Assembly (NCBI GenBank): GCA_035711625.1
Contig: DASTCA010000022.1
Coordinates: forward strand, 21,039-85,038
DNA length: 64,000 nucleotides
Direction: 5' to 3'
Source of the DNA: Gemmatimonadota bacterium
Lineage (GTDB): Bacteria; Gemmatimonadota; Gemmatimonadetes; JACCXV01; JAHWKZ01
A model generated the notes under the pieces. It made no database searches. It saw nothing but the letters and a program-made list of their open reading frames with translations, and was not told the DNA's origin. The translations under genes and the position numbers were made by a program. Below are positions 2,675 through 57,416 of the stretch, in pieces (within the stretch, counting starts at the first letter, position 1; every line of letters begins with the position of its first letter).

Positions 2675-3985
2675 GTGCGAACTCCTTCGTTCCTCGTCGC
2701 TCTCCTTGCGGCAGCCGTGACGGCGCTCGCCCAGGAGCCGTCCATCGACCTGGCCGAAGCGAGTCGCGCGTTCGAGTCCGCGAAATCCGCGAGTGATTTG
2801 GACGCCGGCCGGCTGTGGGACACGGAGATATACGGCCCCGTCTTCCTGGTCGATCCCCAGACCCGCTTCGTCGCCGCCGACCGGTCGGATCCAGGAGGGG
2901 TACTGACCGCGCGCGACGGCGTCTGGACGGGAACGCTCCCGCAGTCGATCAACCCCGCGAACACGGCGATCGAATGGGCAGGTCTCGAGTGGACGATGGT
3001 CCTCTGGCCGCCGCCGACGATCCCGCATGCGCGGAACCGGCTTCTCCTCCACGAGATGTTCCATCGTGTCCAGGACAAGATCGGGCTGCCGGCGAACAAC
3101 CCGCTGAACGCGCATCTCGACACGCGGGATGGCCGGATCTGGATGCGGCTCGAGATGCGGGCGCTCGCCGAGGCGCTGTCACATGGCGGAGAGGCGCGGC
3201 GCTCGGCGATTCGCGACGCGCTCGACTTCCGCGCGCTCCGTCGCGGGCTGTTCCCGGGTGCAGCCGCGGACGAGGATGGGCTCGAGCGGAACGAAGGGAT
3301 GGCGGAGTATACCGGGCTCGTCCTGGGCGGGCTTCCGACCGCCGCGCTGGCGCATCGCGCCGCCGTGGGGCTCGAGCAGCAGGAGGCCCGCGAAACGTTC
3401 TCGCGGAGTTTCGCCTACGCGACTGGACCCGCCTACGGCGTGCTCCTGGACGCGTCGGGGAGGTCCTGGCGCGAGGCACTCGTCGGCGGGGCGACGCTGA
3501 CAGAGCTCCTGGAAGCGTCTTATGCGCCCGAGGTGTCGCGGGTCCCGGCGGAAGGCCGGGTCGCGGGATACAACGGCGAGCGCGTGATCGCGATCGAGAC
3601 GGCACGCGACGAGGCGCGGCTGGCCCGCGAGGCGGAGCTCCGGGAACGTTTCGTAGACGGGCCGCTCCTACTCATGGTTCCGGGCTCGGAGTTCTCGTTC
3701 TCGTTCGATCCGAATGACGCCTTCAACCTGGCGGGGATCGGGACCGTCTATGGCACAACGCGGGTGGTCGACGGCTGGGGCGTGCTCGAGGTCGAGTCCG
3801 GTGGCGGGCTCTTCCGCCGGAACGAGGAGGGCATGATCACGGGCGTCGCCGTGCCGGTCCCCTCCGGCGCCGCGACCCCGCCGACGGCAGGGGGCGGCTG
3901 GAGGCTCGAGCTGGCGCCGGGTTGGGAGATCGTCCCCGGAGACCGCGCGGGGGACTGGGTCGTCCGCGCCACCACCACTCCTTGA
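2675..3985 (+). CDS. secreted protein with HExxH motif, putative MA-clan zinc metallopeptidase
   Basis: GTG at 2675. Signal peptide (LVALLAAAVTALAQE). HEMFH at nt 3050-3064. A candidate third-ligand Glu in NEGMAEYTG about 65 residues further on. Family not recognised. Confidence 0.45.
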   Translation: MRTPSFLVALLAAAVTALAQEPSIDLAEASRAFESAKSASDLDAGRLWDTEIYGPVFLVDPQTRFVAADRSDPGGVLTARDGVWTGTLPQSINPANTAIEWAGLEWTMVLWPPPTIPHARNRLLLHEMFHRVQDKIGLPANNPLNAHLDTRDGRIWMRLEMRALAEALSHGGEARRSAIRDALDFRALRRGLFPGAAADEDGLERNEGMAEYTGLVLGGLPTAALAHRAAVGLEQQEARETFSRSFAYATGPAYGVLLDASGRSWREALVGGATLTELLEASYAPEVSRVPAEGRVAGYNGERVIAIETARDEARLAREAELRERFVDGPLLLMVPGSEFSFSFDPNDAFNLAGIGTVYGTTRVVDGWGVLEVESGGGLFRRNEEGMITGVAVPVPSGAATPPTAGGGWRLELAPGWEIVPGDRAGDWVVRATTTP

Positions 3986-4449
3986 TGCCGGACCGGGGGG
4001 CCACCGTAACGCTCCGGGAGGTGACGAAGGAGAATCTGCGCGATGTCCTCCTGTTGAAGGTGGCGCCCGACCAGGAGCGGTTCGTCGCCTCGAACTCGAT
4101 CTCGATCGCGCAGGCCCACTTCCATCCCGAGATCGCGTGGTTCCGGGCGATCTACGCCGACGACACGGCGGTCGGGTTCCTCATGCTGCACGACGAGCCT
4201 GGCACCGCCACGTACTACCTGTGGCGATTCATGGTCGACCACCGGTTCCAGAAGCTGGGCTACGGCCGGCGCGCGCTCGAGCTCCTGGTCAACCACGTCC
4301 GCTCCCGCCCGGGAGCGACCGCGCTCACCCTCAGTCACGTCCCCGGCGACGGCGATCCGTCACCCTTCTACGAGCGGCTGGGGTTCGCGCATACGGGCGA
4401 AGAGGACGACGGCGAGCTCGTGATGCGGCTGGATCTCACGCCCGCATAG
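3985..4449 (+). CDS. GNAT family N-acetyltransferase
   Basis: ATG at 3985 overlaps the upstream stop (TGATG). Acetyl-CoA-binding motif region (HRFQKLGYGRRALE) and typical GNAT fold length. Confidence 0.6.
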   Translation: MPDRGATVTLREVTKENLRDVLLLKVAPDQERFVASNSISIAQAHFHPEIAWFRAIYADDTAVGFLMLHDEPGTATYYLWRFMVDHRFQKLGYGRRALELLVNHVRSRPGATALTLSHVPGDGDPSPFYERLGFAHTGEEDDGELVMRLDLTPA

Positions 4450-4453
4450 CCGC

Positions 4454-4485
4454 CGACCGCTTTCCGCAGAAATCGCTGGCGGTCG
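4454..4485. terminator. weak inverted repeat between convergent genes
   Basis: cgaccgc ... gcggtcg, a 7-bp stem with an 18-nt loop, in the 40-bp gap between the GNAT (+) and GT1 (-) 3' ends. Confidence 0.2.
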
Positions 4486-4489
4486 CTCG

Positions 4490-5749
4490 TCAGCCGCGGA
4501 CCGCAGTCGCGATCTCCTCGCACGCCGCCGAAACCCCGTCCTCCTCCCGCACGATGCGGGAGACCTCCCCCGCCCGGGCGGCGCAAACGGGGTCGTCGAG
4601 GAGCTCCTCGAGCGCAGCGGCCGCGCGAGCGGCGCGGTAGCGACCAGAGCTCAATACGCGGGCCACTCCCAGCCGGGCCGCGCGTCGCGCGTTGTCGGGC
4701 TGGTCGTGAGACCAGGGAACCACGAGCATCGGCCGGCCGGACCGGAGGCCCTCCGCCAGCGTGCCGATCCCCCCGTGATGGACAATGGCGGCGGCGCGTG
4801 GGAACAGTGCACGATGGGGAGCGCGGGCGATCGCGATCGCGTCGTCATGGAGCGAGGGGGAGATGCGGTTCACCCCCTCGTCCCCGACCAGGAGGACCGC
4901 CCGTCGCCCCAGCCGGCGGGCAGCCGCGAGGCTCTCGTCGTAGAACCGACCCGCGACGTTCACCGCCGAGGAGCCCAGCGTGAAGACGACGGGAGGGGGG
5001 CCGGCGACGAGAAAGGCTTCGAGCCGGCGCGCGTCCGGCTCGTCCTCGGAAGGCGCGTCGCGGAACGCGAAGCCCGTCACCCGCGTGCTCTTGGGCCAGT
5101 CGGGTTGAGGGTCGGCGAGGACGCGGGAGAAGAGCGCGAGCGTGCGCAGCGGTGAATGCTGACCTTCCTGGAGAGGGTCGCCGCCCGGCGGCAGTCCGAG
5201 CTCCTCCCGGAGCTGCCGCACCGGTCTGGTCCACGAGCGCGTGACGGAGCGCATCGTACGGACCACGAGCGACACGACACCCGGGATCCCGTACAGCCGC
5301 CAAGCGTGGGGCAGCGGACCGAGCACGGGAAAGTCGTGTCGCGAGAAGAAGGACAGGGGCGCGAGCACGGTCGAGATCCAGGGCAGGCCGCGCTCCGCGG
5401 CGACGATCGGCGCCGCGAGCGAGAGCGGGTGGGAGACGATAGCGTCCGCGTCGCTCGCGGCCGCGAACGTGTCCGCGTGGGATTCCCGCAGAGCGGGCAG
5501 GACCATCTCCCGCAGGACGACAGCCGGTCCCCACCGAGGGTGCATCGCGCGCGCGAAGAGCTCCTTGTCCTCGGGATGGGCGTCCGGCCGGACCGGACGG
5601 AACGCGAGGCCCTCGCTCTCGACGTCGGCGCGCCAGTACTCGTGGGTGGCGACCACTGGCTCGTGCCCGCGCGCCGCGAGGCCGCCGGCGATCGCGAGGT
5701 AGGGGTTCAGGTCGCCGCGAGTGCCGAAGGTCGTCAGGAGGATTCGCAT
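4490..5749 (-). CDS. GT1-family glycosyltransferase (MGT/UDP-glycosyltransferase-like), paralog A
   Basis: ATG at 5749 (MRILLTTFGTRGDLNPY), an N-terminal GT28-like start. C-terminal nucleotide-sugar motif (HHGGIGT...PMLVVPWSHDQPDNA). The track ORF 4490..5812 adds 21 unlikely residues at the N-terminus. Confidence 0.75.
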   Translation of the reverse strand: MRILLTTFGTRGDLNPYLAIAGGLAARGHEPVVATHEYWRADVESEGLAFRPVRPDAHPEDKELFARAMHPRWGPAVVLREMVLPALRESHADTFAAASDADAIVSHPLSLAAPIVAAERGLPWISTVLAPLSFFSRHDFPVLGPLPHAWRLYGIPGVVSLVVRTMRSVTRSWTRPVRQLREELGLPPGGDPLQEGQHSPLRTLALFSRVLADPQPDWPKSTRVTGFAFRDAPSEDEPDARRLEAFLVAGPPPVVFTLGSSAVNVAGRFYDESLAAARRLGRRAVLLVGDEGVNRISPSLHDDAIAIARAPHRALFPRAAAIVHHGGIGTLAEGLRSGRPMLVVPWSHDQPDNARRAARLGVARVLSSGRYRAARAAAALEELLDDPVCAARAGEVSRIVREEDGVSAACEEIATAVRG

Positions 5750-5953
5750 GGAAACGGGATGTACCCTTCCGATGTGCGCCGGATCCTCCGGCCACGCTAG
5801 GTTGTTCTCCATGAACCGGCGCTGCGCGGCGTACTACCTCGGCGACCTCGGTGCGGACGGACCCTCTCCCGAGGAGATCGTGGCGCGGTTCGCTGTGGCT
5901 GGAAGCGGCGAGTGGCCGACGGCCACCGGCGCAAGAGCCAGGGAGACACGGCC

Positions 5954-8900
5954 ATGACGATCGCCAAGCGCCTGATCCTCTTGCTCGGCGTGCCTCTCGT
6001 AGTGCTCATCGGGTTGGGCATCTACACGCACCGGCAGCTCGATCGGATCGAGGAGCGAAGCCGCTTCGTCGCGGAGTCGCGCATCGATGCACTCGCCACG
6101 ATCGCGAACCTTTCCCGACAGTTCGAAGAGCTTCGCGTGGAAGCGCGAGAGTACCTCCTCTCCGACGACGAGGAACGCGCGCAGATCCGCGCGCGGTTCG
6201 ACGAGGGGGAGCGTGAGTTGTCTGCTCTCCTGCGGTTGTATGCAGACAGCCTGGTCGTGAGTGATCAGGGGCGACGCCTTCTGGGGGAGTTCCAGACCCA
6301 GAGCGCGGAGTGGCTGATCGACGCGAAGCGGGTGATGAGCCTCGTCGACGAAGGCCGGGGCGAGGAAGCGCTCGCGCTCGCGGGGGGCCAGATGGAGCTC
6401 GGCATGCGGCTCAGCGCAGCCTCGGGCGAGTGGATCCTCAACAACGAGGAGTTGGCGGAGCGGGCGGGGCAGGACGTGACGCGAGCCATCGAGACTTTCA
6501 GGACGCGAATGATGCTCGTCACCGCAGCGGCGGTCCTGCTGGCCGGTATCCTGGGCTACTTGACGGTCCGCCGGATCGTCGTGCCGATCCGCGGCCTCCG
6601 GTCCTCGGTGGAGACGATCGCGTCGGGCGACTACCGGACCGAGGTCCCGTTCATGCACGCCACAGATGAGGCGGGCGCTCTGGCGCGATCCATCGACGTG
6701 TTGAAGCGCGGCGCGGAGGAAATGGACGACCAACGCTGGGTAAAGTCTCAGGTGTCCGCCATCACCGGGGACTTGCAGGGGGCGACCTCCTTCGCGGACT
6801 TCGGCGAGCGCTTGTTGTCCGGTCTCGTGCCTCTGATCGGCGGGGGGGTGGCGAGCTTCTACGTGTTCGACGAGTCGACTCACCGTCTCCGGAAGAGCGC
6901 GACGTACGGACTGCCCGCCGATGCCGCGGCCGATGAAGTCGGACTCGGCGAAGGGCTGATCGGCCAATGTGCGCGGGATCGCCGCCCGGTCACCCTGTCG
7001 GGACTGCCGCCGGATTACTTGCTGATCGGATCGAGCGTCGGGACGGCGACTCCCACTTTCGCGAAAGCGTGGCCTGTCCTGCTCCAGGACTCGCTCCTCG
7101 GAGTATGCGAGCTCGCATCCTTCCAGGCGTTCGGTTCGCGGAGCGAGGCGTTGCTCGAGCAGCTCCTGCCGGTCACGGCGATGAGCCTGGAGGTCTTGCA
7201 GCGCAACCTGCGACTCGAAGATACCGAACGATTCTTCCGCAGCGTGCTCGAGCTCGCTCCCGACGGCCTCATGGTGGTCGACGAGCAGGGCGTTATCCAG
7301 GTGGCGAACGTGCAGTGCGAGGCGCTCTTCGGCTATACCCAGGCGGAGCTCATCGGCCGTTCTGTCGAGACGCTCGTGCCGGAGGACGTGCGAGCGGGGC
7401 ATGCGGCGCTACGCGAGGCGTTCAATCGGAACCCGTCCACACGCTCGATGGGAGCGGGTCGGGAGCTCCAGGGCCAGCGCAAGGACGGCACTCTGTTCGC
7501 CATCGAGATCGGGCTGAGCCCGTTGCCGGGGCGGAACGGGAGCCGCGCCCAGACCGCGGTCTCCATTCGGGACATCACCGAGCGCAAGCAGGCCGAGGCC
7601 GAGCTCAAGCGCACGAACTTCCTGGCCGACAGCGCGCTGGATCTCACGAAGTCGGGATACTGGCACGTGCCGCTCGACGGGTCGGGCTGGTACAACTCGT
7701 CCGCTCGCAGCATCGCCATCTTCGGGGACGAGCCGAACCCCGAGATGCGATACACCCTGGACCACTGGTCCGCTCACGTGTTTGCGGGCGACGAGGCGGC
7801 GGCGAAGACGACGATGGAGAACTTCGCCGCGGCGGTGGCAGGGACGATTCCGCGGTACGACTCGACGTACGCCTACAAACGCCCCGTCGACGGCGAGGTC
7901 GTCTGGCTCCACGCGTTGGGCCACGTGATCAAGGACGAGGATGGGACGCCGACGGACATGTACGGGGTCGTCCAGGACGTCACAGATTTCAAGGAGCTGG
8001 AACGGGAGCTCCTAGGGGCGCGCGACACGGCGGAAGCCGCCACTCAAATGAAGTCGATGTTCCTCGCGAACATGAGCCACGAGATCCGCACGCCGATGAA
8101 CGCCGTCATCGGCCTCTCGCACCTGGCTCTCAAGACCCAGCTGAGCCACAAGCAGCGCGACTACGTGACCAAGATCCACAGCGCCGGTACGTCACTGCTT
8201 GCGATCATCAACGACATCCTCGACTACTCGAAGATCGAGGCGGGCAAGCTCGAGATCGAGGCGACGACTTTCCGGCTCGACGACGTCATCGCGTCGGTCA
8301 CCACGCTCACAGGTCAGAAGGCGAACGAGCGTGGGCTCGAGTTCCTCGCGCGCGTCTCGCCCGGCATACCGCAAGTGCTCATCGGGGACCCGATCCGACT
8401 CGGACAGATTCTTACCAACCTGGTGAACAACGCGATCAAGTTCACCGAGCGAGGCGAAGTTCACGTCACCGCCGAGGTCCTGGAGAAGACCGACCAGAAG
8501 TGCAAGCTGAGGTTCTCGGTCCGCGACACCGGCGTAGGCATGACGCGCGAGCAGGCCGATCGGCTGTTCCAGCCGTTCATGCAGGCCGACATGTCGACCA
8601 CGCGCCGCTACGGCGGAACCGGCCTGGGTCTCAGCATCAGCCGGCGGCTGGTCGAACTGATGGAGGGCGAGATCTGGCTTGAAAGCGAGCTCGGCGCGGG
8701 GAGCACCTTCACGTTCACCGTCTGGCTGGGAGTCGCTGAGGATAAGGCGTCCCGCAAGGTGGTCCCCGAGAAGCTGGCGAGCCTGCGCGCTCTCATCGTG
8801 GACGACAACGCCGCCGCCCGGGAGATCCTCGAAGACATGCTCGAAGGGGTTGTGAAACAGGCGGACGTCGTGGCCTCGGGTGCCGAGGCGATCGCCGCGC

Positions 8901-10246
8901 TCCGAGACAACGCCGCGGACGACCCCTATGACGTCGTGTTCATGGATTGGCGCATGCCCGGGATGGATGGGCTGGAGGCAGTCCGCATCATCAAGCAGGA
9001 GCCGAGGATCGAGCCCAAGCCGGCGATCGTCATGGTCACGGCGTTCGGACGGGAGGACGTGCGCGAGGAGGCGGAACGCCTGGAGCTCGATGGATTCCTG
9101 CTCAAGCCGCTTACGAAGTCGATGATCGTGGATGCGCTGGTCAGCGTGTTCGCCGATTCGGCCGAACAGGCAGCCGCGGTCGACATGGCGAACGAGCAAG
9201 GAATCGACCTGTCTGGTATGCGCGTGCTCGTGGTCGAGGATAACGAGATCAATCAGCAGATCGCGGTGGAGCTCATCGAGGGCGTAGGCGCGTCGGTGAC
9301 CGTAGCGGACAACGGAAAGCTGGCCCTCGACATCCTGATGGAAGGCCCGACCCCGACCCCGTTCGAGGCCGTGCTCATGGACCTGCAGATGCCCGTGATG
9401 GACGGTTTCCAGGCGACGGAGGCGATCCGGGCCGACCCGCGGTTCGCCTCTCTCCCCATCGTGGCCCTGACTGCGCACGCGACAATGGAAGAGAGGCAGC
9501 GGTGCATCGCCGCGGGCATGAACGATCACGTGGCGAAACCGATCGACCCCGGCTTGCTCTACGAGACGCTCGGCCGTTTCCACCACGGGACGACGCCCGT
9601 CGCGCGTCCCGAGGTGAGCGCGCGCGCACACGACGGAGTCCCGAACGTCGAGGGGCTCGACACCGCGGCCGGCCTCAGCCGGGTCGCGGGCAACGAGCGG
9701 CTCTATCTGAAGCTCCTCCGCCAGTTCGTGGACCAGCAAGCCGAAGCGGTGACGGAGATTCGCGCGCTTCTCCAGGAGCGTCGCACGGAGGACGCGGAGC
9801 GGCTCGCGCACACGTTAAAGGGGGTTTCCGCGACCCTGGGCGTGAAGGACGTTCCTGAAGTGGCCGAGACGGCCGAGCGAGCGATCAAGGATCGCGCTCC
9901 GAGCGGGGAGATCGATGTCGCGCTGGAGAAGGTCGAAGCCGCCCTAGGCCTCGCGGTGACACGGCTGCGGGACGCCCTCGCCGTGTTCGCACCTGACGCC
10001 GTGACGACGAGCGCGGCGGTAGATCCCGCACAGACGCGCGCGGCCGTGGCCGAATTGACGAGCCTGCTGGCGGACTTCGACGCGGGCGCCATCGAGTTCG
10101 TCGAGGGTCACGCCGCCGTCTTGCGGCCGCTTTTCGCGGCCGACGCCTGGAGTCAATTCCTCAAGCAGGTCCAGGCGTTCGCCTTCCCGGACGCGTTGGC
10201 GATGCTCGAGGCCACCGATCGCGGCCAGGGATCGACGAAAGCCTGA
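5954..10246 (+). CDS. unorthodox hybrid sensor histidine kinase (4HB sensor, HAMP, GAF, PAS, PAS, HisKA, HATPase, REC, REC, Hpt)
   Basis: ATG at 5954 (MTIAKR); an alternative start lies at 5912. Two TM helices flank a roughly 150-aa helical periplasmic region. H-box MSHEIRTPMN. G-boxes DTGVGM and GGTGLGL. Two receiver domains (LIVDDN...MDWRMPGMDG and VLVVEDN...MDLQMPVMDG). C-terminal Hpt (HTLKGVSATLGV). Confidence 0.9.
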   Translation: MTIAKRLILLLGVPLVVLIGLGIYTHRQLDRIEERSRFVAESRIDALATIANLSRQFEELRVEAREYLLSDDEERAQIRARFDEGERELSALLRLYADSLVVSDQGRRLLGEFQTQSAEWLIDAKRVMSLVDEGRGEEALALAGGQMELGMRLSAASGEWILNNEELAERAGQDVTRAIETFRTRMMLVTAAAVLLAGILGYLTVRRIVVPIRGLRSSVETIASGDYRTEVPFMHATDEAGALARSIDVLKRGAEEMDDQRWVKSQVSAITGDLQGATSFADFGERLLSGLVPLIGGGVASFYVFDESTHRLRKSATYGLPADAAADEVGLGEGLIGQCARDRRPVTLSGLPPDYLLIGSSVGTATPTFAKAWPVLLQDSLLGVCELASFQAFGSRSEALLEQLLPVTAMSLEVLQRNLRLEDTERFFRSVLELAPDGLMVVDEQGVIQVANVQCEALFGYTQAELIGRSVETLVPEDVRAGHAALREAFNRNPSTRSMGAGRELQGQRKDGTLFAIEIGLSPLPGRNGSRAQTAVSIRDITERKQAEAELKRTNFLADSALDLTKSGYWHVPLDGSGWYNSSARSIAIFGDEPNPEMRYTLDHWSAHVFAGDEAAAKTTMENFAAAVAGTIPRYDSTYAYKRPVDGEVVWLHALGHVIKDEDGTPTDMYGVVQDVTDFKELERELLGARDTAEAATQMKSMFLANMSHEIRTPMNAVIGLSHLALKTQLSHKQRDYVTKIHSAGTSLLAIINDILDYSKIEAGKLEIEATTFRLDDVIASVTTLTGQKANERGLEFLARVSPGIPQVLIGDPIRLGQILTNLVNNAIKFTERGEVHVTAEVLEKTDQKCKLRFSVRDTGVGMTREQADRLFQPFMQADMSTTRRYGGTGLGLSISRRLVELMEGEIWLESELGAGSTFTFTVWLGVAEDKASRKVVPEKLASLRALIVDDNAAAREILEDMLEGVVKQADVVASGAEAIAALRDNAADDPYDVVFMDWRMPGMDGLEAVRIIKQEPRIEPKPAIVMVTAFGREDVREEAERLELDGFLLKPLTKSMIVDALVSVFADSAEQAAAVDMANEQGIDLSGMRVLVVEDNEINQQIAVELIEGVGASVTVADNGKLALDILMEGPTPTPFEAVLMDLQMPVMDGFQATEAIRADPRFASLPIVALTAHATMEERQRCIAAGMNDHVAKPIDPGLLYETLGRFHHGTTPVARPEVSARAHDGVPNVEGLDTAAGLSRVAGNERLYLKLLRQFVDQQAEAVTEIRALLQERRTEDAERLAHTLKGVSATLGVKDVPEVAETAERAIKDRAPSGEIDVALEKVEAALGLAVTRLRDALAVFAPDAVTTSAAVDPAQTRAAVAELTSLLADFDAGAIEFVEGHAAVLRPLFAADAWSQFLKQVQAFAFPDALAMLEATDRGQGSTKA

Positions 10247-10249
10247 GCG

Positions 10250-11254
10250 ATGACGTCGCGAATCCTGCTCATCGACGACACCCCGGCCACCATCGAAGCG
10301 ATCGCCGCCACCTTGCGGCAGGAGGGCTATAAGGTCAGCGTCGCGACCAGCGGTGAGCAGGGGCTGGACGTTCTCGAGCGCTTTCGCCCGGACCTGATCC
10401 TCCTCGACGTGATGATGCCCGGGATGGACGGTTTCGAAACCTGCGCCCGGATCAAGGCGGCCCCCGAGTGGGCAGAGATCCCGGTGGTCTTCCTCACGGC
10501 CAGGGGCGATCCGGACGACATCGTCCATGGCTTCGAGGCGGGCGCGGTGGATTACGTGTCGAAGCCTTTCAATGCGCACGAGTTGCTCGCGCGTGTGAGA
10601 ACCCATCTGACGCTCGACCAGCTCTATCGCGAGAATCAACGTCTCCTGCTCAACGTGCTGCCCGCGCCGATCGCCGAGAAGCTGAAGAAACAGACCGGTA
10701 TCATCGCCGACCGATACGATGACGTATCGGTTCTCTTCGGGGACCTCGTGGGGTTCACACCGCTCTCGGCGACGTTATCCCCGACCGACCTGCTGGAGCT
10801 CCTGAACCGTGTGTTCTCCGGATTCGACCTGCTGGCCAGCCAACGGGGTCTCGAGAAGATCAAGACCATCGGAGACGCCTACATGGTCGCGGGCGGCCTT
10901 CCCGAGCCACGGCCCGGTCACCTCGCGCTGATGGCCGAGCTCGCCCTGGACATGCAGGCCAGCATGGCACCGTTCAAGGCGAAGTACGACGGTCTCAGCC
11001 TGCGCATCGGGCTCCACGTCGGCAGCGCCATCGCCGGGGTCATCGGGATACGCAAGTTCATCTACGACGTCTGGGGCGATACCGTGAACACGGCCAGCCG
11101 ATTGGAGTCCCACGGCATCCCGGGCCGCGTCCAGGTCAGCGACACGGTGTACGAGCGGCTCCGGACTCGCTTCGATTTCGAGCCGCGCGGGGTCGTGGAT
11201 CTGAAGGGGAAGGGCCCGATGATGACCTACCTGCTAATCGGAGCGCGGGGTTAG
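10250..11254 (+). CDS. response regulator with class III adenylate cyclase output (REC–CHD)
   Basis: ATG 4 nt after the HK stop. REC (LLIDDTP...LLDVMMPGMDGFE...K). CHD with intact catalytic set: FGDLVGFT (metal Asp), KTIGDAYMV (adenine-specifying Lys and second Asp), GDTVNTASRLES (transition-state Asn and Arg). Confidence 0.85.
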   Translation: MTSRILLIDDTPATIEAIAATLRQEGYKVSVATSGEQGLDVLERFRPDLILLDVMMPGMDGFETCARIKAAPEWAEIPVVFLTARGDPDDIVHGFEAGAVDYVSKPFNAHELLARVRTHLTLDQLYRENQRLLLNVLPAPIAEKLKKQTGIIADRYDDVSVLFGDLVGFTPLSATLSPTDLLELLNRVFSGFDLLASQRGLEKIKTIGDAYMVAGGLPEPRPGHLALMAELALDMQASMAPFKAKYDGLSLRIGLHVGSAIAGVIGIRKFIYDVWGDTVNTASRLESHGIPGRVQVSDTVYERLRTRFDFEPRGVVDLKGKGPMMTYLLIGARG

Positions 11255-11257
11255 TGT

Positions 11258-12520
11258 TCATGGAGACTCCCAGTTCAGCGCCGCCTCCTCGATCGCGTCG
11301 CACGCCGCCCCGACGCCGTCCTCAGCGCGCACCGTCTCGCCGATGCGTGCGGCCCGGGCCAGCAAGGCGGGGTCGTCGAGGAGCGCTCTGAGCTCGGCGG
11401 CGACCCGGTCGGCCTGATAGCGCTTCGGGGGCAAGGTCTTCGCCACCCCGATCCGCGTCGCCCGGCGCGCGTTGTCGGGCTGGTCGCCGGCCCACGGGAC
11501 CGCCAGCATCGGACGTCCCGAGCGCAGCGCCTGGGCCAACGTGCCCATTCCGGCGTGATGGACGATCGCCGTGGCACGGGGAAACAGCGCACCGTATGGC
11601 GCGCGCTCGATTACGATCGCGTCGTCCCCGAGAGGCGCTTCCGGTCGGTTCGAGGGATCGTCGCCGACCAGGAGGACTGCGCGCTTCCCCAGCATTCGCG
11701 CCGCGGCGAGGCTCTCCTCGTAGAACGATCCCGCGACCGCCACCGCCGAGGTCCCGAGCGTGAACACGATCGGCGCCGGCCCGGCGTCGAGAAACGCCTC
11801 GAGCGGCGCGGTGCCGGGATCCGCGGCCAGCGGGGGATCTCGGAACAGGAAGCCGGTCAGCTTGGCGCTCGCCGGCCAGTCGCGCTGGGGCTCGGCGATG
11901 ACGCGCGAGAAGAGCCCCAGCGTCAGCAACGGGGAGTGCTGACCCTCGTAGAGGGGGTGACCACCCGGCGGCAGCCCGTGCTCCTCGCGAAGCTCGCGAA
12001 CCGGCTCGATCCAGGACCTCGTGATCTCTCGAGCCAGCCGGATCAGGAGGTCCGGAACCCCCGGCATCCCATGCACGCGCCACGCCCGCGGAGGCGGCGG
12101 GGCGACCGGCAGGTCGTATCGTGAGAAGAAGGGGAATGGCGAGAGAACAGTCGAGGCCCACGCCATTTCCCGCTCTTCGGCGACGATCGGTCCCGCGAAC
12201 GTCAGCGGGTGGGTGACGATCATGTCGGCGTCACGCGCGGCGTCGGCCGTATCGAGGTACGAGTCGCGGAGGTGCGGAAGCACGACGTTCCGGATCACGA
12301 ATTCAGCCCCGAGGCGCGGGTCCATCGCGATCTTTCGGTCGTTCGGATCCGCGTCCGGGCGGACCGGCCGGAACCCGATCCCCTCGGCCTCGACAGCTGC
12401 GCGGTAGAAATCGTGGGTCCCGATCATCGGTTCGTGGCCGCGCGCGGCGAGCCCGCGGCCCAGCGCGAGGTACGGGTCGAGGTCTCCCAGCGTGCCGAAG
12501 GTCGTGATCAGGACGCGCAT
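11258..12520 (-). CDS. GT1-family glycosyltransferase, paralog B
   Basis: ATG at 12520 (MRVLITTFGTLGDLDPY). Collinear with the 4490..5749 protein, with many identical blocks (AARGHEP, GFRPVRPDA, REEHGLPPGG, AVLLVGD, AIVHHxGxGTL, DQPDNARRA). Stop lies 3 nt from the cyclase gene stop (convergent). Confidence 0.75.
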   Translation of the reverse strand: MRVLITTFGTLGDLDPYLALGRGLAARGHEPMIGTHDFYRAAVEAEGIGFRPVRPDADPNDRKIAMDPRLGAEFVIRNVVLPHLRDSYLDTADAARDADMIVTHPLTFAGPIVAEEREMAWASTVLSPFPFFSRYDLPVAPPPPRAWRVHGMPGVPDLLIRLAREITRSWIEPVRELREEHGLPPGGHPLYEGQHSPLLTLGLFSRVIAEPQRDWPASAKLTGFLFRDPPLAADPGTAPLEAFLDAGPAPIVFTLGTSAVAVAGSFYEESLAAARMLGKRAVLLVGDDPSNRPEAPLGDDAIVIERAPYGALFPRATAIVHHAGMGTLAQALRSGRPMLAVPWAGDQPDNARRATRIGVAKTLPPKRYQADRVAAELRALLDDPALLARAARIGETVRAEDGVGAACDAIEEAALNWESP

Positions 12521-12584
12521 CGGAACAGTGTAGGCCGTCGCGGGAGCCGGGAGCTACCGGTCCGGATGCTCGTCCCGCTTTCGT

Positions 12585-12600
12585 ATCAAGATTCGTTGAT
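12585..12600 (+). promoter_or_regulatory. candidate ArsR operator / promoter region
   Basis: Imperfect palindrome ATCAAgattcgTTGAT inside a locally AT-rich stretch (tttcgtatcaagattcgttgatgtaagttgg), 14-29 nt upstream of the arsR ATG. TGTAAGT could serve as a -10. Confidence 0.3.
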
Positions 12601-12613
12601 GTAAGTTGGTTCC

Positions 12614-12934
12614 ATGGTCCTCGCTCCTTCGATTCCGGTGGCCCGGGCAGCGGCGGTCTTTCAGGCCCTTTCCGACGAGAAGCGGCTTCGCATCCTCGGG
12701 CTCCTGGTTGGCGGCGAGCAGTGCGTCTGCGAGCTGACCGAGGCGCTCGACCTCCCCCAGTCCCTGCTCTCGTTCCACCTCAAGGCGCTCAAGGCGGCCG
12801 GCCTGGTCGCCGACCGACGTGACGGGCGGTGGGTCCATTACTCGCTGAGGCCGTCGGGCCTGGAAGAGGCGAAGGACGCGCTCGATGCGCTGGTCGTCGA
12901 GCCGATACCGCGTGCGAAGGCAGCCCGATGCTGA
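12614..12934 (+). CDS. arsR: ArsR/SmtB-family metalloregulator
   Basis: Winged-helix protein with the As(III)-binding CVC motif (GGEQCVCELTEAL) and the conserved LLSFHLKALKAAGLV recognition helix. Confidence 0.8.
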   Translation: MVLAPSIPVARAAAVFQALSDEKRLRILGLLVGGEQCVCELTEALDLPQSLLSFHLKALKAAGLVADRRDGRWVHYSLRPSGLEEAKDALDALVVEPIPRAKAARC

Positions 12935-13701
12935 GCTCCTGGCACTGCGCGCTGATCGCCGATGTCCACGGCAACCTGCCCGCGCTCGAGGCTGTCCTCG
13001 AAGACATCCAGCGACGCGGCGTGGACGCGGCCTACCACCTGGGAGACCTGGTGGGATATGCGCCGTGGCCGGACGAGGTGGTGGCGCGGCTCGCCGAGGC
13101 GGGTATCGCAGGTGTCGCCGGGAACTACGACTCCACCGTGGCCACCGGCGCCGACCACTGCGGCTGCCGAGCTGAGAGTCCCGAGCAGGAGGCGCTCGCC
13201 CACGAGAGCTATGCCTGGACGCTGGCGCGGGTGACGCTCGAGACGAAAGCCCGGCTCCGAGCGCTTCCGTTCCGCATCGACCTCCGGCCGGGCGGGGGTC
13301 ACCATTCCGGGCCGACGCTCCATCTCTTCCACGGCGCGCCTACCCTAAATACGCTCTACTGGGACGAGAGCCGCCCGGACGACTTCGCTCGCAAGATGGC
13401 GGCGAAGCTGGGCGCGATCGAGGGCGACGCCATGGTCTTCGGTCACACGCACGTTCCGTGGCAACGCGAAGTCGACGGAATGCTGTTCGCGAACGCGGGG
13501 TCGGTCGGGCGACCCAAGGACGGTGATCCGCGCGCCTCTTGGGCGATCGCATCCTGGGACGGTTCGGCGATCCAGATCGAGCCCGTGAGGACCGACTACG
13601 ACGTCGAGCGCGCAGCCAGGGCGATCCTCGTGAGCGAGCTTCCCGACACGTTCGCCGACGACCTGAAGCATGGCGGGACGAAACGGGTCGGAGCCGCATG
13701 A
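12928..13701 (+). CDS. calcineurin-like metallophosphoesterase (MPP superfamily)
   Basis: ATG overlaps the arsR stop (ATGCTGA). MPP motifs present: DVHGN, GDLVGY, GNYD (a variant of GNH[DE]), FGHTHVP. An unusual HCGC cysteine cluster. Sits between arsR and acr3. Confidence 0.7.
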
Positions 13702-14801
13702 CGGGTCGACTGGCCTTCCTCGATCGATACCTGACGCTGTGGATCTTCCTGGCGATGGCGGGCGGTGTGGCGCTGGGCCGGTTGGTCCCGGTCATCCCCA
13801 CGGCCCTCGACGCGATCGCGATCGGGACCACGTCGATTCCGATCGCCGCCGGCCTCATCCTGATGATGTATCCGCCGCTCGCCAAGGTGCGGTACGAGCA
13901 GCTGCCGAGGGTCTTCCGTGACATCAAGGTGCTGGGGCTCTCCCTCGCTTTGAACTGGGTCGTGGGTCCGGCGCTCATGTTCCTCCTCGCGATCGCGTTC
14001 CTCGCGGATCGGCCCGAGTACATGATCGGGATCATCCTGATCGGGCTGGCGCGCTGCATCGCCATGGTGATCGTGTGGAACGACCTGGCGGCAGGAGACG
14101 CGGAGTACGCCGCGGGGCTGGTGGCGTTCAACTCCGTCTTCCAGGTGGTGTTCTTCGCGGCGTACGCGTGGCTGTTCATCGGCGTGCTGCCCGGCGTGCT
14201 GGGACTGGAAGGCGCGCGGGTCGACGTCACGACGCGTGAGATCGCGACCTCGGTGTTCGTCTACCTGGGCATCCCGTTCCTGGCCGGAATGGCGACGCGA
14301 TGGATCGGGCTGAGGACCAAGGGTCGTGCGTGGTACGAGTCGGAGTTCGTCCCGCGAATCTCGCCGCTCACCTTGATCGCGCTCCTGTTCACGATCGTCG
14401 TCATGTTCTCCTTTCAGGGGGACGCGATCCTGGAGCGTCCGTTCGACGCGGTGCGGATCGCGGCGCCATTGCTCGTCTATTTCGTCATCATGTTCTTCAC
14501 GGCGTTCTGGCTGTCGTGGAAGGCCGGAGCCGACTATCCGAAGGCGACCACCCTCTCGTTCACGGCGGCGTCGAACAACTTCGAGCTGGCGATCGCGGTT
14601 GCGGTGGCCACGTTCGGGATCGGGCACGGTGCGGCGTTCGCCGCCGTGATCGGACCGCTCGTGGAGGTGCCGGTCCTGATCTCCCTGGTCGCGGTGGCGC
14701 TTCGCATCCGCAGCCGCTGGTTCCCCGACGACCCGGCCGAGCTGGCGCGGGTCCGGACCTGTGCGATCGATGTCGAGACCTCGCCCGCAGTCCAGAGGTA
14801 G
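13698..14801 (+). CDS. acr3: arsenite efflux transporter, ACR3 family
   Basis: ATG overlaps the upstream stop (ATGA). About 10 TM helices. ACR3/ArsB(Acr3)-type sequence ([42 protein letters not shown]). Confidence 0.8.
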
Positions 14802-15388: not shown

Positions 15389-16369
15389 TCAGCCCTGGCC
15401 CCGAGTCCGCAGCGCCCGAGCGGTTTCGCCCACTCGGAGCGACGCGTCGAAGATGCGCCCCACGCGGATCCCGCCCGGAAGGCGATGGCGGCCGAGAGCG
15501 TGGAGGCCGATTGACGCAACGCAGCCGCAGTTGGCGCAGTCCGGCTTCCCGCCGAACTGACACGGCGTCACGCGGGTCTCGAGGTCCGCGGAGAGGCACC
15601 GGGTCACGCGCGCGAAGACGCACTCGCTCGGGTCGCGGGGAGGCTCCAGATAGGCATCCAGCATCCCGCGGTTGGCGAGCAGTTTCGGAAACCGCCGTCG
15701 GATGGCGTCCAGCTCCGCGACCGCCTTGCGTCGCATGGCCGGCGACAGGATCTCCTCGCACGACTCCCCCACCTGAGGAGTGAAGAAGCTGATCCGAATC
15801 GACTTCACCTCCGGGCGCTCGCTCCATGTCCGCACGAACTCCGTGAGGTAGCCGTCGCGACGGGTCATCTGGCTCGTAACCGTGCAATGGACGATGATCC
15901 GGTGACCCTCGATGTTGGCGAGGATTCGCTCGTAGGTGGCGGGTTTCCGGCGAACGTCGTGCTCGGGCTGGAGCCCGTCGATGGAGACCACGACCGTGAG
16001 ATCCTCGATGTGGGCCCAGGCGGGCGGGATGCGACGGACCGCGCTCGTCACGACCTCGACACGGACTCCGCGGTCCGCCAGCTGCGGAAGCAGCACGTCC
16101 AGTTCCCGAAAGCGAACCAGGGGCTCGCCGCCCACGATGTGGACGATCAATGGACGCTGGCGGTCGACCAGCTCGAGGATCCCTTCGACGAGGGCAGGGC
16201 CTGTTCGATCCGCCAGCGATGTGAGGGGGACACCGTCCAGGTGCTCGGGCTGGTAGGCGTAGCAGCCCGGACAGGAGAGGGGGCAGCGGGTCGTGATCTC
16301 GATGGAGAGGGACGGAGCGTATCCGCGGAGGATCCGCGTCCAAGCCCGTACGACGTGAATACGATGCAC
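15389..16369 (-). CDS. radical SAM protein, HpnH-like (C-terminal Cys cluster)
   Basis: CxxxCxxC (TTRCPLSCPGCY). GGEPL glycine-rich SAM motif. VSIDG. C-terminal CQFGGKPDCANCGC cluster resembling the CANC-containing tail of HpnH-type enzymes rather than a canonical SPASM CX2CX5CX3C. Confidence 0.75.
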   Translation of the reverse strand: MHRIHVVRAWTRILRGYAPSLSIEITTRCPLSCPGCYAYQPEHLDGVPLTSLADRTGPALVEGILELVDRQRPLIVHIVGGEPLVRFRELDVLLPQLADRGVRVEVVTSAVRRIPPAWAHIEDLTVVVSIDGLQPEHDVRRKPATYERILANIEGHRIIVHCTVTSQMTRRDGYLTEFVRTWSERPEVKSIRISFFTPQVGESCEEILSPAMRRKAVAELDAIRRRFPKLLANRGMLDAYLEPPRDPSECVFARVTRCLSADLETRVTPCQFGGKPDCANCGCVASIGLHALGRHRLPGGIRVGRIFDASLRVGETARALRTRGQG

Positions 16370-17446: not shown

Positions 17447-18793
17447 TCAGGCCATTGCGAGCCGGAGTGCGAGCCCGCAGAGGGCTGCCACGGCCACGGT
17501 GGCGAGGATCCCCCATCGCCGGCGGAACAGGAGAAACGCCGCTCCGGCGGCGATCGCGACCGCGTAGGGATCCATCGTGGACCAGACCGGAACCTCGAGG
17601 TGGAGGCTCCAGCGGGACACCCATTCCGTGGCGCCGAAGAGGGTCCGGAGCGCGAACCAGACCGCGAGGTTCAGAATCACGCCCACGACTGCAGCGGTGA
17701 TTCCGGAGAGTGCCGCGGTGAGCCCCTTCCGGCCGCGCAAATGCTCGATGTACGGCGCGCCGACGAAGATCCACAGGAAGCACGGCGCGAACGTCACCCA
17801 CGTCGTCACGACGGACCCAACCACGCCCGCAACGATCGGATCCAGGGCGCCGGGACTCCGGTAGGCCCCCAGGAACCCGACGAACTGGACGACCATGATC
17901 AGGGGGCCGGGCGTCGTCTCGGCCAGCCCCAGGCCATCCAGCATCTCTCCCGGGGAGAGCCAGCCGAAGTCCTCGACCGCGCGCTGGGCGATGTAGGCGA
18001 GGACCGCATAGGCGCCGCCGAAGGTCAGAACGGCCGCCTTCGAGAAGAACAGCGCCTCTGAGACGAAGACGCTCCCCCCTCCAGCGACCAGCGCGAGCAG
18101 TCCCACCGGAGCCCACCAGATACCGAGCCAGAGGAGCGCGGTCGCGATCGTGCGGGAGGCCGGCGGAGGCGGGACCGCTTCCCGCTGTGGAGGATCTCCC
18201 GCGCCCGGCAGGGAGCGCGAGATCAGAGACTCGACCCCGGCCCGTGCTCCGAGCCATCCGACGAGCGCAGCGGCTCCGACGATCGCCGGGAATGGGACGT
18301 CGAAGGCGAACATCGCGAGGAATGCGAGGGCGGCGACAGCCACGAGGAGGGTCGAATCGAGAGCGCGGCGGCCAATCCGGACCAGCGCGTGAACGACGAT
18401 CGCCAGGACGGCGGGCTTGATTCCGTAGAAGATCGCGTCCACGACCGGAACGTCCCCCCACGCGACGTAGAGGATCGAGAGAGCCAGGATCGAAAGGAAC
18501 CCGGGCAGGATGAACAGCCCTCCCGCCACCAGGCCGCCGCGCCAGCGGTGCATGAGCCAGCCGACGTACGTCGCGAGCTGCTGCGCCTCGGGCCCGGGAA
18601 GGAGCATGCAGTAGTTCAGCGCGTGAAGGAAGTGGCGCTCCGAGATCCAGCGCCGCTCGTCGACGAGCAGCCGCTGCATGACCGCGATCTGTCCCGCGGG
18701 CCCGCCGAAAGAGAGCGCCGCGACCCGTAGCCAGACCGGGATCGCCTCCCGCAGGGAGGTCGCCTGACGCACGCGCTCCGGGGAGTCGGTCAT
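17447..18793 (-). CDS. chrA: chromate transporter ChrA (full-length, duplicated CHR domains)
   Basis: Bipartite CHR family signature (SFGGPAGQIAVMQ in the N-half, LTFGGAYAVLAY in the C-half). About 12 TM helices. Confidence 0.85.
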   Translation of the reverse strand: MTDSPERVRQATSLREAIPVWLRVAALSFGGPAGQIAVMQRLLVDERRWISERHFLHALNYCMLLPGPEAQQLATYVGWLMHRWRGGLVAGGLFILPGFLSILALSILYVAWGDVPVVDAIFYGIKPAVLAIVVHALVRIGRRALDSTLLVAVAALAFLAMFAFDVPFPAIVGAAALVGWLGARAGVESLISRSLPGAGDPPQREAVPPPPASRTIATALLWLGIWWAPVGLLALVAGGGSVFVSEALFFSKAAVLTFGGAYAVLAYIAQRAVEDFGWLSPGEMLDGLGLAETTPGPLIMVVQFVGFLGAYRSPGALDPIVAGVVGSVVTTWVTFAPCFLWIFVGAPYIEHLRGRKGLTAALSGITAAVVGVILNLAVWFALRTLFGATEWVSRWSLHLEVPVWSTMDPYAVAIAAGAAFLLFRRRWGILATVAVAALCGLALRLAMA

Positions 18794-28888: not shown

Positions 28889-29125
28889 CGCTTCCTCCCT
28901 GTGCAAGTTCCTCCCATTCCTCCATCTTGACGCGTCGCGCGGACTCGCGCCAGCAAGTCGATCACTCACCGCGAGGTGCGATGGGAGCGGTCCGATTCCG
29001 GCTGTCGGCCTTGATGCTCCTGCGTACTTCGTGCGGGACGGGTGGTTCGTGATCCTCAGCACATCCCTCGACGCTCCGCCACATGCCCACGCCGGGAGCC
29101 TGTATCATGGGATGACGGGGCCCCG

Positions 29126-39485: not shown

Positions 39486-39489
39486 CGGC

Positions 39490-53956: not shown

Positions 53957-53961
53957 GCGTG

Positions 53962-53986
53962 GGGGGCGCCCGACGGCGACGCCCCC
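53962..53986. terminator. bidirectional GC hairpin between convergent murQ and dodecin
   Basis: Stem gggggcg/cgccccc with an 11-nt loop in the 41-bp gap between the two stop codons. Confidence 0.35.
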
Positions 53987-53997
53987 GCACGGCCCGA

Positions 53998-54207: not shown

Positions 54208-54299
54208 CCACACCTCCCGGTTCGGGTTCGAATCCCGAGCATACATGGAACGAGGTCGTGAGGGCACCGCTCGCCGGCGAGGCCGATCCGCGTGGGCGG

Positions 54300-54339
54300 G
54301 GGAGAAAAGCGAAAGCCCCCCTCCGGAGAGGGGGGCTTT
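54300..54339 (-). terminator. intrinsic terminator (minus strand) between divergent dodecin and anmK
   Basis: Perfect 12-bp stem aaagcccccctc/gaggggggcttt with loop cgga (54312-54339). On the minus strand it is followed by CGCTTTTCTCC. There is no U-tract in the plus orientation. Confidence 0.45.
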
Positions 54340-57394: not shown

Positions 57395-57416
57395 ACCTTC
57401 TCCCCGCCTCGCGAGT

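Follow-up and report, generated by a model that had tools for sequence, protein, structure and literature searches.

Gene content of the locus

The locus lies within a window of 64 kb, the whole stretch of DNA analysed, from a Gemmatimonadota genome. At its left flank a gene for a GNAT acetyltransferase (3985..4449, plus strand; Pfam Acetyltransf_1) converges with GT-A (4490..5749, minus strand), which encodes a GT1 (GT-B fold) glycosyltransferase of 419 aa. This GNAT neighbour is conserved at the left flank of loci L004-L008, L010, L092 and L100. A divergent spacer of 204 nt (5750..5953) separates GT-A from the gene of a membrane hybrid ('unorthodox') histidine kinase of 1430 aa (5954..10246, plus strand), followed with operon-like spacing, after 3 nt and on the same strand, by the gene of a response regulator of 334 aa with a receiver (REC) domain and a class IIIa adenylate cyclase domain (10250..11254). 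The latter two genes are referred to as the cassette. The second GT1 gene, GT-B (11258..12520, minus strand; 420 aa), is convergent with the cyclase gene, the two stop codons being 3 nt apart. The right-hand backbone is conserved and consists of arsR, metallophosphoesterase and ACR3 (SBF family) genes (12614..14801, plus strand), assigned by Pfam and synteny. A palindromic ArsR-type operator, ATCAAGATTCGTTGAT (12585..12600), is located in the GT-B/arsR divergent spacer and was also found upstream of arsR in L099, L100, L010, L096, L005 and L006; it marks the ancestral arsR-proximal part of this spacer.

The window matches the NCBI MAG GCA_025931135.1, and the REC-cyclase/GT-B junction was also recovered in two independent Logan assemblies (SRR13760676 and SRR33883360). 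An assembly artefact was excluded as the source of the layout, since the junction is common to three independent assemblies. The G+C content of the cassette was 65.9%, compared with 69-73% in the flanks, and its dS was 2-3 times that of the flanks; the elevated dS could reflect weaker codon-usage constraint instead of recombination. A scan of positions 4300-12800 for sigma-70 promoters and intrinsic terminators yielded nothing exceeding shuffles.

Characteristics of the glycosyltransferases

The GT-A and GT-B proteins were 63% identical end to end (264/416, 3 gaps), and their genes 69.8% identical across 1258 nt, with homology limited to the coding region. An earlier note on this DNA had described two collinear minus-strand paralogs about 55-65% identical, in agreement with the measured values (63% aa, 70% nt). 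Both proteins matched the Pfam families EryCIII-like_C (49-56 bits, cut-off 31.7), UDPGT (39-40 bits, cut-off 19.5) and Glyco_transf_28 (33-38 bits, cut-off 26.2). The donor-binding motif HHGGxGT...DQxxNA was present as VHHGGIGT...SHDQPDNA in GT-A and as VHHAGMGT...AGDQPDNA in GT-B. Domains and motif place both proteins in GT1 (GT-B fold), with a predicted transferase role. The best PDB match had an E value of 8e-24. Omega was approximately 0.3 for GT-A and 0.36 for GT-B, showing purifying selection on both. NCBIfam matches of the glycosyltransferases were all far under the cut-offs, without reaching equivalog level or providing a specific glycosyltransferase name, and the conserved hypothetical neighbours likewise received no specific NCBIfam name.

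Characteristics of the kinase and the REC-cyclase

The domain order of the kinase, according to Pfam, was 4HB_MCP-HAMP-GAF-PAS-PAS-HisKA-HATPase_c-REC-REC-Hpt. Hydropathy indicated two transmembrane segments (TM1, approximately aa 6-26; TM2, approximately aa 186-207), with the 4HB_MCP domain periplasmic. HisKA (73.7 bits) carries the H-box SHEIRTP with H709, and HATPase_c scored 110.8 bits. The two REC stretches totalled 161 bits; their acceptors D998 (REC1) and D1143 (REC2) lie within FMD/LMD motifs and are accompanied by the DD/ED, T and K residues. The Hpt domain (42.9 bits, cut-off 24.6) contains H1286 within AHTLKG. With the HisKA, HATPase_c, fused REC and Hpt residues intact, the protein is predicted to be a hybrid/unorthodox phosphorelay kinase. 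The earlier description of a 1430-aa unorthodox hybrid kinase on the plus strand between the glycosyltransferases was confirmed by its coordinates and Pfam domains.

The product of the following gene had been described as a REC-adenylate cyclase, and this was also borne out: Response_reg (114.6 bits) and Guanylate_cyc (200.5 bits) were both detected by Pfam. The REC pocket contained the D9/D10, acceptor D53, T83 and K105 contexts. In the cyclase domain, metal-binding D165 and D209, adenine-specifying K205 and D273, and transition-state N280 and R284 were identified by motifs and by structure-sequence alignment; the six residues align to their AC5/AC8 counterparts in an alignment that also took in AC9 and the mycobacterial Cya/Rv1625c structures. 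Omega was 0.12-0.15. The acidic pocket, acceptor Asp and full catalytic set define the protein, as judged from its sequence, as a REC-class III adenylate cyclase, and the K205/D273 pair predicts cAMP, not cGMP, as its product.

Distribution of the kinase/REC-cyclase pair

Kinase orthologues were found in L010 and L092 (76-77% identity) and in L093 (67% over the full length). Besides L093, where the cyclase was 78% identical, the pair was present at unrelated loci without any GT1 gene in L101 (cyclase 80%), in the Verrucomicrobiae L094 and L102 (kinase 55-57% over the C-terminal half, cyclase 74-76%) and in L012 (kinase 55%, cyclase 58%). In all seven loci (L010, L092, L093, L094, L101, L102 and L012) the two genes overlap or are separated by up to approximately 40 nt. 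A scan of metagenome contigs with REC-cyclase, used as a negative control, showed a GT-A/B homologue near the cyclase at none of 80 loci, the closest REC-cyclase among these being only 58% identical. By these comparisons, the kinase and the REC-cyclase form a highly conserved, widespread and very abundant two-gene module across phyla.

Syntenic site in related genomes

The same backbone with a single glycosyltransferase gene and no cassette was found in eight distinct Gemmatimonadota loci (L004-L008, L097, L099 and L100); L098, which repeats L097, was left out of this count. The earlier note had proposed a synteny comparison in related genomes, asking whether the glycosyltransferase genes are adjacent without the kinase pair elsewhere; at these eight loci a single glycosyltransferase gene stands without the pair. 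The contig scan of genomes with GT-B provided only six loci, informative on synteny, none of them with the cassette (0/6).

The cassette was present at the identical site in the closest relatives, L010 and L092. L010 has only one glycosyltransferase gene and, of the cassette-free spacer, retains no more than the 63 nt next to arsR. L092 carries relics of a deleted copy of the segment comprising the GNAT 3' end and the glycosyltransferase gene. The GT-A/kinase spacer was 81-85% identical among the window, L010 and L092, and showed no similarity to the spacer upstream of the glycosyltransferase gene in the cassette-free relatives, being specific to the cassette-bearing lineages. These data support that the kinase and REC-cyclase genes constitute a lineage-specific cassette inserted into a conserved backbone.

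The relics in L092 are an 84-nt remnant of the GNAT 3' end, directly after the REC-cyclase gene, and, approximately 25 nt beyond it, a 22-mer which in the cassette-free L100 is found 15-36 nt before the glycosyltransferase start and which was present in only two of 102 loci (L092 and L100). Together they are read as the footprint of a deleted 1.3-kb glycosyltransferase copy, and they indicate a duplication of the [GNAT 3' end-glycosyltransferase] segment around the cassette. The contigs of L092 and L096 stop at critical junctions. For the piece of a minus-strand ORF with which L092 ends (…AGLAGP*), blastp-short, blastx and tblastx gave no identification, as a glycosyltransferase or otherwise.

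Ancestry of GT-A and GT-B

GT-A was 89% identical (aa) to its orthologues in L010 and L092, with dS of 0.19-0.23, the same as the flanking genes, and its clade was recovered in the neighbour-joining (NJ) tree with bootstrap values of 100 and 97; GT-A is the native copy, orthologous by synteny to the single-copy glycosyltransferase of the clade. GT-B was closer to the glycosyltransferase of L004 (78% aa, dS 0.56) than to GT-A (63% aa, dS 0.88). Against GT-A, dS was 0.86 for L004 and 0.63-0.72 for the cassette-free L099 and L100. The nucleotide identity of GT-B with L004 (79.8%) extends a further 36 nt beyond the start codon on the 5' side. In the NJ tree GT-B was grouped, on a long branch, with the L004 clade (L004, P0003 and P0004), the bootstrap value being only 79. 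An orthologue of GT-B was present in L096 (91%). GT-A and GT-B are therefore not each other's closest relatives, and GT-B, from identities, dS and tree, appears xenolog-like, of the glycosyltransferase lineage of another subclade. The alignment of both genes and their flanks, proposed in the earlier note as a search for duplication scars, revealed no duplicated flanking DNA or junction scars around the two genes of the window; homology ends with the coding regions. In L092, the relics described above do follow the cyclase gene.

The arsR genes of the window and L096 shared no more than 66-70% identity with their counterparts in L010, L099 and L100. Values of dS formed a mosaic along the locus, in which L010, not the window, stood out at arsR and the phosphoesterase gene. 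Import of GT-B, arsR and the phosphoesterase gene as a single block was dropped for this reason, and transfer of GT-B alone, with or without arsR, was favoured over it. Campbell-type integration of a foreign circle by a single crossover would explain the direct glycosyltransferase repeats flanking the cassette; it was rejected because GT-B is L004-like through its start codon, whereas the type of the L092 relics is that of the window clade.

Origin of the layout

The most probable reading, and one in which we have reasonable confidence, is that an ordinary phosphorelay-to-cAMP module was inserted, with rearrangement, into a conserved backbone, giving a locus of mosaic ancestry, and that the genes share a location and not a function. 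The stand-alone GT1 gene, between the GNAT gene and the arsR-phosphoesterase-ACR3 operon, is a conserved backbone gene of the clade. The two-gene module would have entered the glycosyltransferase/arsR divergent spacer in recent ancestors of this genome. The relics in the sister lineage indicate that, along with the insertion, the [GNAT 3' end-glycosyltransferase] segment was duplicated in direct orientation, leaving a glycosyltransferase gene on each side. The right-hand copy would subsequently have been lost in sister lineages and retained in this genome. Since GT-B has the sequence of the lineage of another subclade, allelic replacement or a foreign origin is indicated for this retained copy, and not a young in-situ duplicate. 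The L092 relics are similar to the GNAT of the window clade itself and GT-B to the L004 subclade, so that two events or more are proposed: either a duplication followed by a replacement, or rearrangements that took place separately in different lineages. The precise succession of rearrangements given here is a reconstruction.

The earlier note had placed the cassette inside, or at, a tandem duplication of the glycosyltransferase gene. The inserted cassette is supported by the eight cassette-free relatives with a single glycosyltransferase, and a duplication of the [GNAT 3' end-glycosyltransferase] segment is indicated by the L092 relics; a simple tandem duplication is not supported, as GT-B is nearer to L004 than to GT-A and L010 has the cassette with one glycosyltransferase. 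An in-situ tandem duplication of the native gene, in which the cassette landed between the two copies and GT-B then diverged fast, would account for the common orientation of both copies on either side of the cassette, for the long branch of GT-B and for the within-clade type of the duplicate once present in L092. We consider it very unlikely: dS between GT-A and GT-B is higher than the dS of GT-A against L099 and L100, which are more distant and lack the cassette, and equals that between GT-A and L004, GT-B itself is closer to L004, their similarity extends 5' of the start codon, and the flanks of the window copies lack homology. Slightly less improbable, although still unlikely, is that GT-B, possibly with arsR, came independently of the cassette from an L004-like member of the Gemmatimonadota, through horizontal transfer or homologous recombination, the L092 relics being a separate local rearrangement. 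The affinity of GT-B to the L004/P0003/P0004 clade, the divergent arsR of the window and L096 and the mosaic dS are in accordance with such a transfer, but it needs the coincidence of a second glycosyltransferase exactly at the right edge of the cassette and of an independent duplicate at the same place in L092, and the arsR/phosphoesterase outlier is L010.

The link from an extracytoplasmic signal through cAMP to glycosylation that the earlier note had suggested was not supported: the pair was found at unrelated loci lacking any GT1 gene, a finding of the kind that the note itself had named as refuting, and the glycosyltransferase is common without the pair. A functional unit in which such a signal controls, through cAMP, one or both flanking glycosyltransferases or their pathway might be seen in the tight packing, in the 204-nt spacer conserved in three cassette-bearing lineages, in the stop codons of cyclase and GT-B, in the adjacency of cassette and glycosyltransferase in all three close relatives and in a GT-C (PMT_2) gene near the module in L093. 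Its probability is nevertheless low, considering the eight loci with the glycosyltransferase and no cassette, the cassette without GT1 in L093, L094, L101, L102 and L012, the absence of GT-A/B homologues from the 80 cyclase loci, and L010, which manages without a second glycosyltransferase. In addition, no cNMP-binding protein was detected in the 64-kb window, and CRP-like sites (TGTGA-N6-TCACA) were not above chance (two matches, 8.5 expected). The comparative data gave no support to functional coupling with glycosylation or to a new cAMP–glycosylation pathway. A lineage-specific regulatory link may be compatible with the absence of conserved co-occurrence. That the module was co-opted in this lineage to control the flanking GT1s, the pair, about 74-80% identical across phyla, being more broadly an uncharacterised, horizontally spreading cAMP module, is a speculative and rather improbable proposal. 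Candidate routes may be the divergent spacer shared with GT-A and, as cyclase and GT-B converge, antisense read-through into GT-B, which could occur. If true, co-option would tie an envelope or periplasmic signal to the glycosylation of a lipid or small molecule.

The preferred reading remains an insertion beside a conserved glycosyltransferase gene in one soil Gemmatimonadota lineage, with the second glycosyltransferase as a remnant of the rearrangement and the layout recording genome history. In the module itself, the periplasmic four-helix-bundle sensor and the cytoplasmic GAF/PAS domains would control autophosphorylation at H709; the phosphoryl group would pass to D998 and/or D1143, then to H1286 of the Hpt domain and to D53 of the response regulator, and phosphorylation of D53 would activate a homodimeric class IIIa cyclase to form cAMP. 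The adjacency of the two genes is what points to the possible transfer from Hpt to the REC-cyclase, and the direction of regulation, the signal and any cAMP targets are likewise proposals.

This locus is a cautionary case: its striking nested layout most probably arose where recombination is frequent, through insertion of the cassette, duplication of a segment, differential loss and replacement of an allele, and does not represent a functional unit of the operon kind. It also offers dated, stepwise natural intermediates (cassette-free site, cassette with one glycosyltransferase, cassette with relics of a second, cassette with two) of how signalling modules integrate into conserved backbones of uncultured Gemmatimonadota. 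No studied representative of the exact two-gene form, a REC-class IIIa cyclase with a partner hybrid kinase, was found, and the pair is a reasonable target for the biochemistry of phosphorylation-controlled cAMP synthesis.

Comparison with known systems

GT-A and GT-B share with known GT1 enzymes the GT-B fold, an N domain of the Glyco_transf_28 type and, in the C-terminal part, the nucleotide-sugar motif HHGGxGT...DQ; their resemblance to sterol 3-beta-glucosyltransferase UGT51 (5gl5, 5xvm), the OleD/OleI macrolide glycosyltransferases, GtfA/B and RhlB-like enzymes is at family level only, and the glycosyltransferase gene here is outside any biosynthetic cluster.

Kinases of the ArcB/BvgS/TorS/EvgS type combine HisKA-HATPase-REC-Hpt in one membrane protein, with a separate response regulator downstream. 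The window kinase has the same combination in one chain and a separate response regulator, but differs in its two tandem REC domains, 4HB_MCP periplasmic sensor, HAMP, GAF and two PAS domains, and the output of the system is a cyclase enzyme instead of a DNA-binding protein.

In sequence, the cyclase domain came closest to mycobacterial Cya/Rv1625c and mammalian membrane adenylate cyclases (5o5k, 4p2f, 1yk9, 8buz and 8sl3; E 1e-54 to 1e-70), with which it shares all six canonical catalytic and specificity residues. Those enzymes are controlled via six-helix transmembrane modules or G proteins, whereas the window cyclase has an N-terminal receiver. For cyanobacterial CyaC (Spirulina/Anabaena), a class III adenylate cyclase, activation through His-Asp phosphotransfer has been described (Kasahara & Ohmori 1999, as cited in PMC1183210; PMC3009899). 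In common with CyaC, as presented in PMC3009899, the window system has a class III cyclase under a receiver domain predicted to be phosphorylated by a histidine kinase, and a GAF domain in the sensing part. According to the same source, CyaC is a single polypeptide (REC-GAF-GAF-HK-REC-cyclase) of class IIIb, unlike the separate membrane hybrid kinase with Hpt (four-step relay) and small stand-alone REC-class IIIa cyclase of the window. In Dictyostelium ACR, too, a single signalling unit combines a class III cyclase with a histidine-kinase module and receivers (PMC3009899). This eukaryotic protein is a single chain whose HisKA is devoid of the phospho-acceptor histidine and whose activity is phosphorelay-independent (PMC3009899), whereas every phospho-acceptor residue is intact in the window proteins.

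Gene arrangement

The window has a high G+C content (about 69%) and matches exactly the Gemmatimonadota MAG GCA_025931135.1, contig JAICNR010000004.1. The two glycosyltransferase genes, GT-A (4490-5749, minus strand, 419 aa) and GT-B (11258-12520, minus strand, 420 aa), lie at the positions reported in the earlier note, and their products are collinear from end to end, with 63% amino acid identity. Their nucleotide identity was 69.8%, and homology ended where the coding regions end. Both belong to the GT1 family (GT-B fold), with Pfam EryCIII-like_C, UDPGT and Glyco_transf_28 above the cut-off in each; the nearest solved structures were sterol 3-beta-glucosyltransferase and macrolide or glycopeptide glycosyltransferases, and an NCBIfam search of both proteins gave no specific assignment. 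Purifying selection acts on both genes (omega about 0.3).

Between them, on the plus strand, the hybrid kinase (5954-10246, 1430 aa) and REC-cyclase (10250-11254, 334 aa) genes were confirmed, the latter starting 3 nt past the kinase stop codon. The stop codons of the cyclase and GT-B genes are 3 nt apart; this junction was seen in two more independent assemblies and is therefore not an assembly artefact.

Kinase and REC-cyclase

Hydrophobic segments of the kinase (about aa 6-26 and 186-207) flank a 4HB_MCP sensor, followed by HAMP, GAF, two PAS domains, HisKA (H709), HATPase_c, two complete receivers (D998 and D1143) and Hpt (H1286). The REC-cyclase has a complete receiver (D53) and a cyclase domain closest to mycobacterial Cya/Rv1625c and mammalian membrane cyclases, with metal residues D165 and D209, the adenine-specifying pair K205/D273, and N280/R284. 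The predicted mechanism is a His-Asp-His-Asp relay by which phosphorylation would control a homodimeric class IIIa cyclase that makes cAMP. Two more class III cyclase-domain proteins, with N-terminal Guanylate_cyc and TPR repeats, are encoded at 29042-31117 (plus strand, 691 aa) and 36900-39656 (minus strand, 918 aa); with three cyclases per 64 kb, the genome seems rich in cAMP/cGMP signalling. In the related locus L092, the kinase orthologue (5682-10001) was called as two ORFs, of 231 aa with 4HB_MCP and of 1181 aa, which could mean a frameshift or a pseudogene, or else an error of assembly.

REC-cyclases of similar size were extremely numerous (of 8000 candidates scored, 7930 had E ≤ 1e-30) and strongly conserved: the best 120, including those of Verrucomicrobiota and other phyla, were at least 67% identical. 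Proteins P0133, P0138, P0162, P0165 and P0222, annotated as Verrucomicrobiota and Vulcanimicrobiota, were 70-74% identical to the window REC-cyclase, a conservation across phyla equal to that of the backbone genes (those conserved around the glycosyltransferase site) inside this Gemmatimonadota clade. A related hybrid kinase lay directly upstream of the cyclase at every locus with context, that of L101 (cyclase 80%) being described as convergent. At L093 the kinase was 67% identical over its full length and the cyclase 78%, with PMT_2, Big_2, another kinase and REC-HD proteins as neighbours. In the Verrucomicrobiae loci L094 and L102 the values were 55-57% over the C-terminal half of the kinase and 74-76% for the cyclase, followed by REC-SpoIIE and, in L094, also by an anti-sigma-type kinase and a STAS protein; at L012 they were 55% and 58%. 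No GT-A/GT-B homologue was found nearby at these five loci or at 80 cyclase loci of a metagenome scan.

Related loci

The cassette-free comparison set comprised five MAG loci (L004-L008) together with L097, L099 and L100; L098 repeats L097. Each has one glycosyltransferase gene and neither kinase nor cyclase, and they have in common much or all of a backbone of alpha/beta-hydrolase, LysM, two hypotheticals, GNAT acetyltransferase, glycosyltransferase, arsR, metallophosphoesterase, ACR3, hypothetical, (radical SAM) and hypothetical genes. In the L005-L008 subclade (L005 2700-3892, L006 11218-12462, L007 4501-5760, L008 7302-8597), a further gene of some 400 aa (SLOG cluster4/LOG-like), co-directional with the glycosyltransferase, lies between it and GNAT; the window clade lacks this gene. 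The radical SAM/SPASM-like gene (window 15389-16369, minus strand) is also present in L006 and is lacking in the close relative L010, where the sequences on either side of it adjoin; it is a backbone indel polymorphism. A perfect palindrome, ATCAAGATTCGTTGAT (ATCAA-N6-TTGAT), at 12585-12600 just upstream of arsR, is kept in all related loci (L099, L100, L010, L096, L005, L006) and is probably an ArsR operator. Metal/metalloid resistance genes flank the region (arsR-phosphoesterase-ACR3, 12614-14801; chromate transporter, 17447-18793), a multicopper oxidase is encoded at 39490-41478, and 53051-64000 carries a peptidoglycan-recycling-like cluster of SIS (MurQ/GKRP-like), AnmK, GH3 (NagZ-like), SLT-LysM transglycosylase, sodium:solute symporter, amidohydrolase and Amidase_3 genes.

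At the glycosyltransferase site, the cassette was confined to the closest relatives, which share 85-96% amino acid identity with the window in the flanking proteins. L010 has the order GNAT> <GT-A, kinase> cyclase> arsR>, with no second glycosyltransferase and with just 63 nt, on the arsR side, left of the cassette-free spacer. In L092 the order is GNAT> <GT-A, kinase> cyclase>, after which comes a relic, 84 nt long, of a GNAT 3' end; its best matches are the GNAT genes of the window clade itself (40-42 of 48 positions). Some 25 nt past the relic lies a 22-mer that, among 102 loci compared, recurs only in cassette-free L100, 15-36 nt upstream of the glycosyltransferase start; it is not in the window. 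In L100 about 1.3 kb separates the GNAT-end and 22-mer anchors, and the glycosyltransferase lies in between, so L092 formerly had a right-hand copy of the segment (GNAT 3' end plus glycosyltransferase), of which the glycosyltransferase has since been deleted. The region of L092 downstream of REC-cyclase (10990-11225) ends at the contig end with an open minus-strand frame terminating in AGLAGP-stop, which had no match. The 204-nt GT-A/kinase spacer is kept in the three cassette-bearing lineages and is unrelated to cassette-free glycosyltransferase-upstream sequence; it therefore came in with the cassette.

Ancestry of GT-B and mosaicism

GT-A formed a group with the syntenic glycosyltransferases of L010, L011 and L092 (bootstrap 100), joined next by those of L099, L100 and kin (97). 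GT-B, on a long branch, grouped with single-copy glycosyltransferases of another subclade (L004/P0003, P0005, P0004/L097; bootstrap 79); its L096 orthologue is 91% identical. The dS values, taken as independent of protein rate, agree with this placement: for GT-A, 0.19-0.23 to L010/L092 (the same as for flanking genes), 0.63-0.72 to L099/L100 and 0.86 to L004. GT-B and the L004 gene are 79.8% identical in nucleotides, with similarity running 36 nt further upstream of the start codon. The tree, the dS between GT-A and GT-B (0.88, versus 0.56 between GT-B and L004) and the L004-like nucleotide sequence argue against GT-B being a young duplicate of GT-A and indicate that the right-hand copy of this genome is either foreign or an old allele.

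Mosaicism extends beyond GT-B. Among the window, L010 and L092, cassette-gene dS was 0.5-0.8 versus 0.16-0.33 for the flanking backbone (2-3 times higher in all three pairs), which could be due to recombination with divergent alleles or to laxer codon constraint; the arsR of L010 is an outlier relative to all others, and L010 lacks the radical SAM gene. Cassette G+C is 65.9%, lower than in the flanks (69-73%). In L002 (SRR13760676), from a near-identical strain, REC-cyclase, GT-B, arsR and phosphoesterase are 100% identical to the window at the protein level and the C-terminal 341 aa of the kinase (L002 2-1027, window 9221-10246) just 95.6%, suggesting recombination between strains with a breakpoint where the kinase and cyclase genes meet.

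Interpretation

Genome history gives the best account of the layout. A mobile, ordinary phosphorelay-to-cAMP module would have entered the glycosyltransferase/arsR divergent spacer of a conserved backbone, along with direct duplication of the adjoining segment; the right-hand copy would later have been lost in some lineages (L010, L092) and, in the window/L096 lineage, either kept or swapped for an L004-like allele. The earlier note, which described the gene layout correctly, had read it as a signalling cassette inside, or created at, a tandem glycosyltransferase duplication, linking a signal, cAMP and glycosylation. That reading is supported in part: the L092 relics of a second copy partly favour a cassette inside a duplication. 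The kinase/cyclase pair at unrelated loci, single-copy glycosyltransferases in relatives, and a glycosyltransferase pair that is old and of separate affinities are findings of the kind that the note had named as refuting it. A regulatory link specific to this lineage is conceivable but unlikely, since no cNMP-binding protein was found within the 64-kb window and CRP-like sites were not above chance; what would allow it is that GT-A and the kinase gene have a common divergent spacer and that the cyclase and GT-B genes converge at their 3-nt junction.

The value of the locus lies mainly in its series of evolutionary intermediates and in the pair as a highly conserved cross-phylum module, of which no studied member was found. 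Its parts are of types already described: two GT1 enzymes, one unorthodox hybrid kinase and one response regulator of the REC-class III cyclase type. The same principle is known from cyanobacterial CyaC, and prokaryotic cyclases are commonly regulated by receiver domains (PMC3009899; PMC1183210, citing Kasahara & Ohmori 1999).
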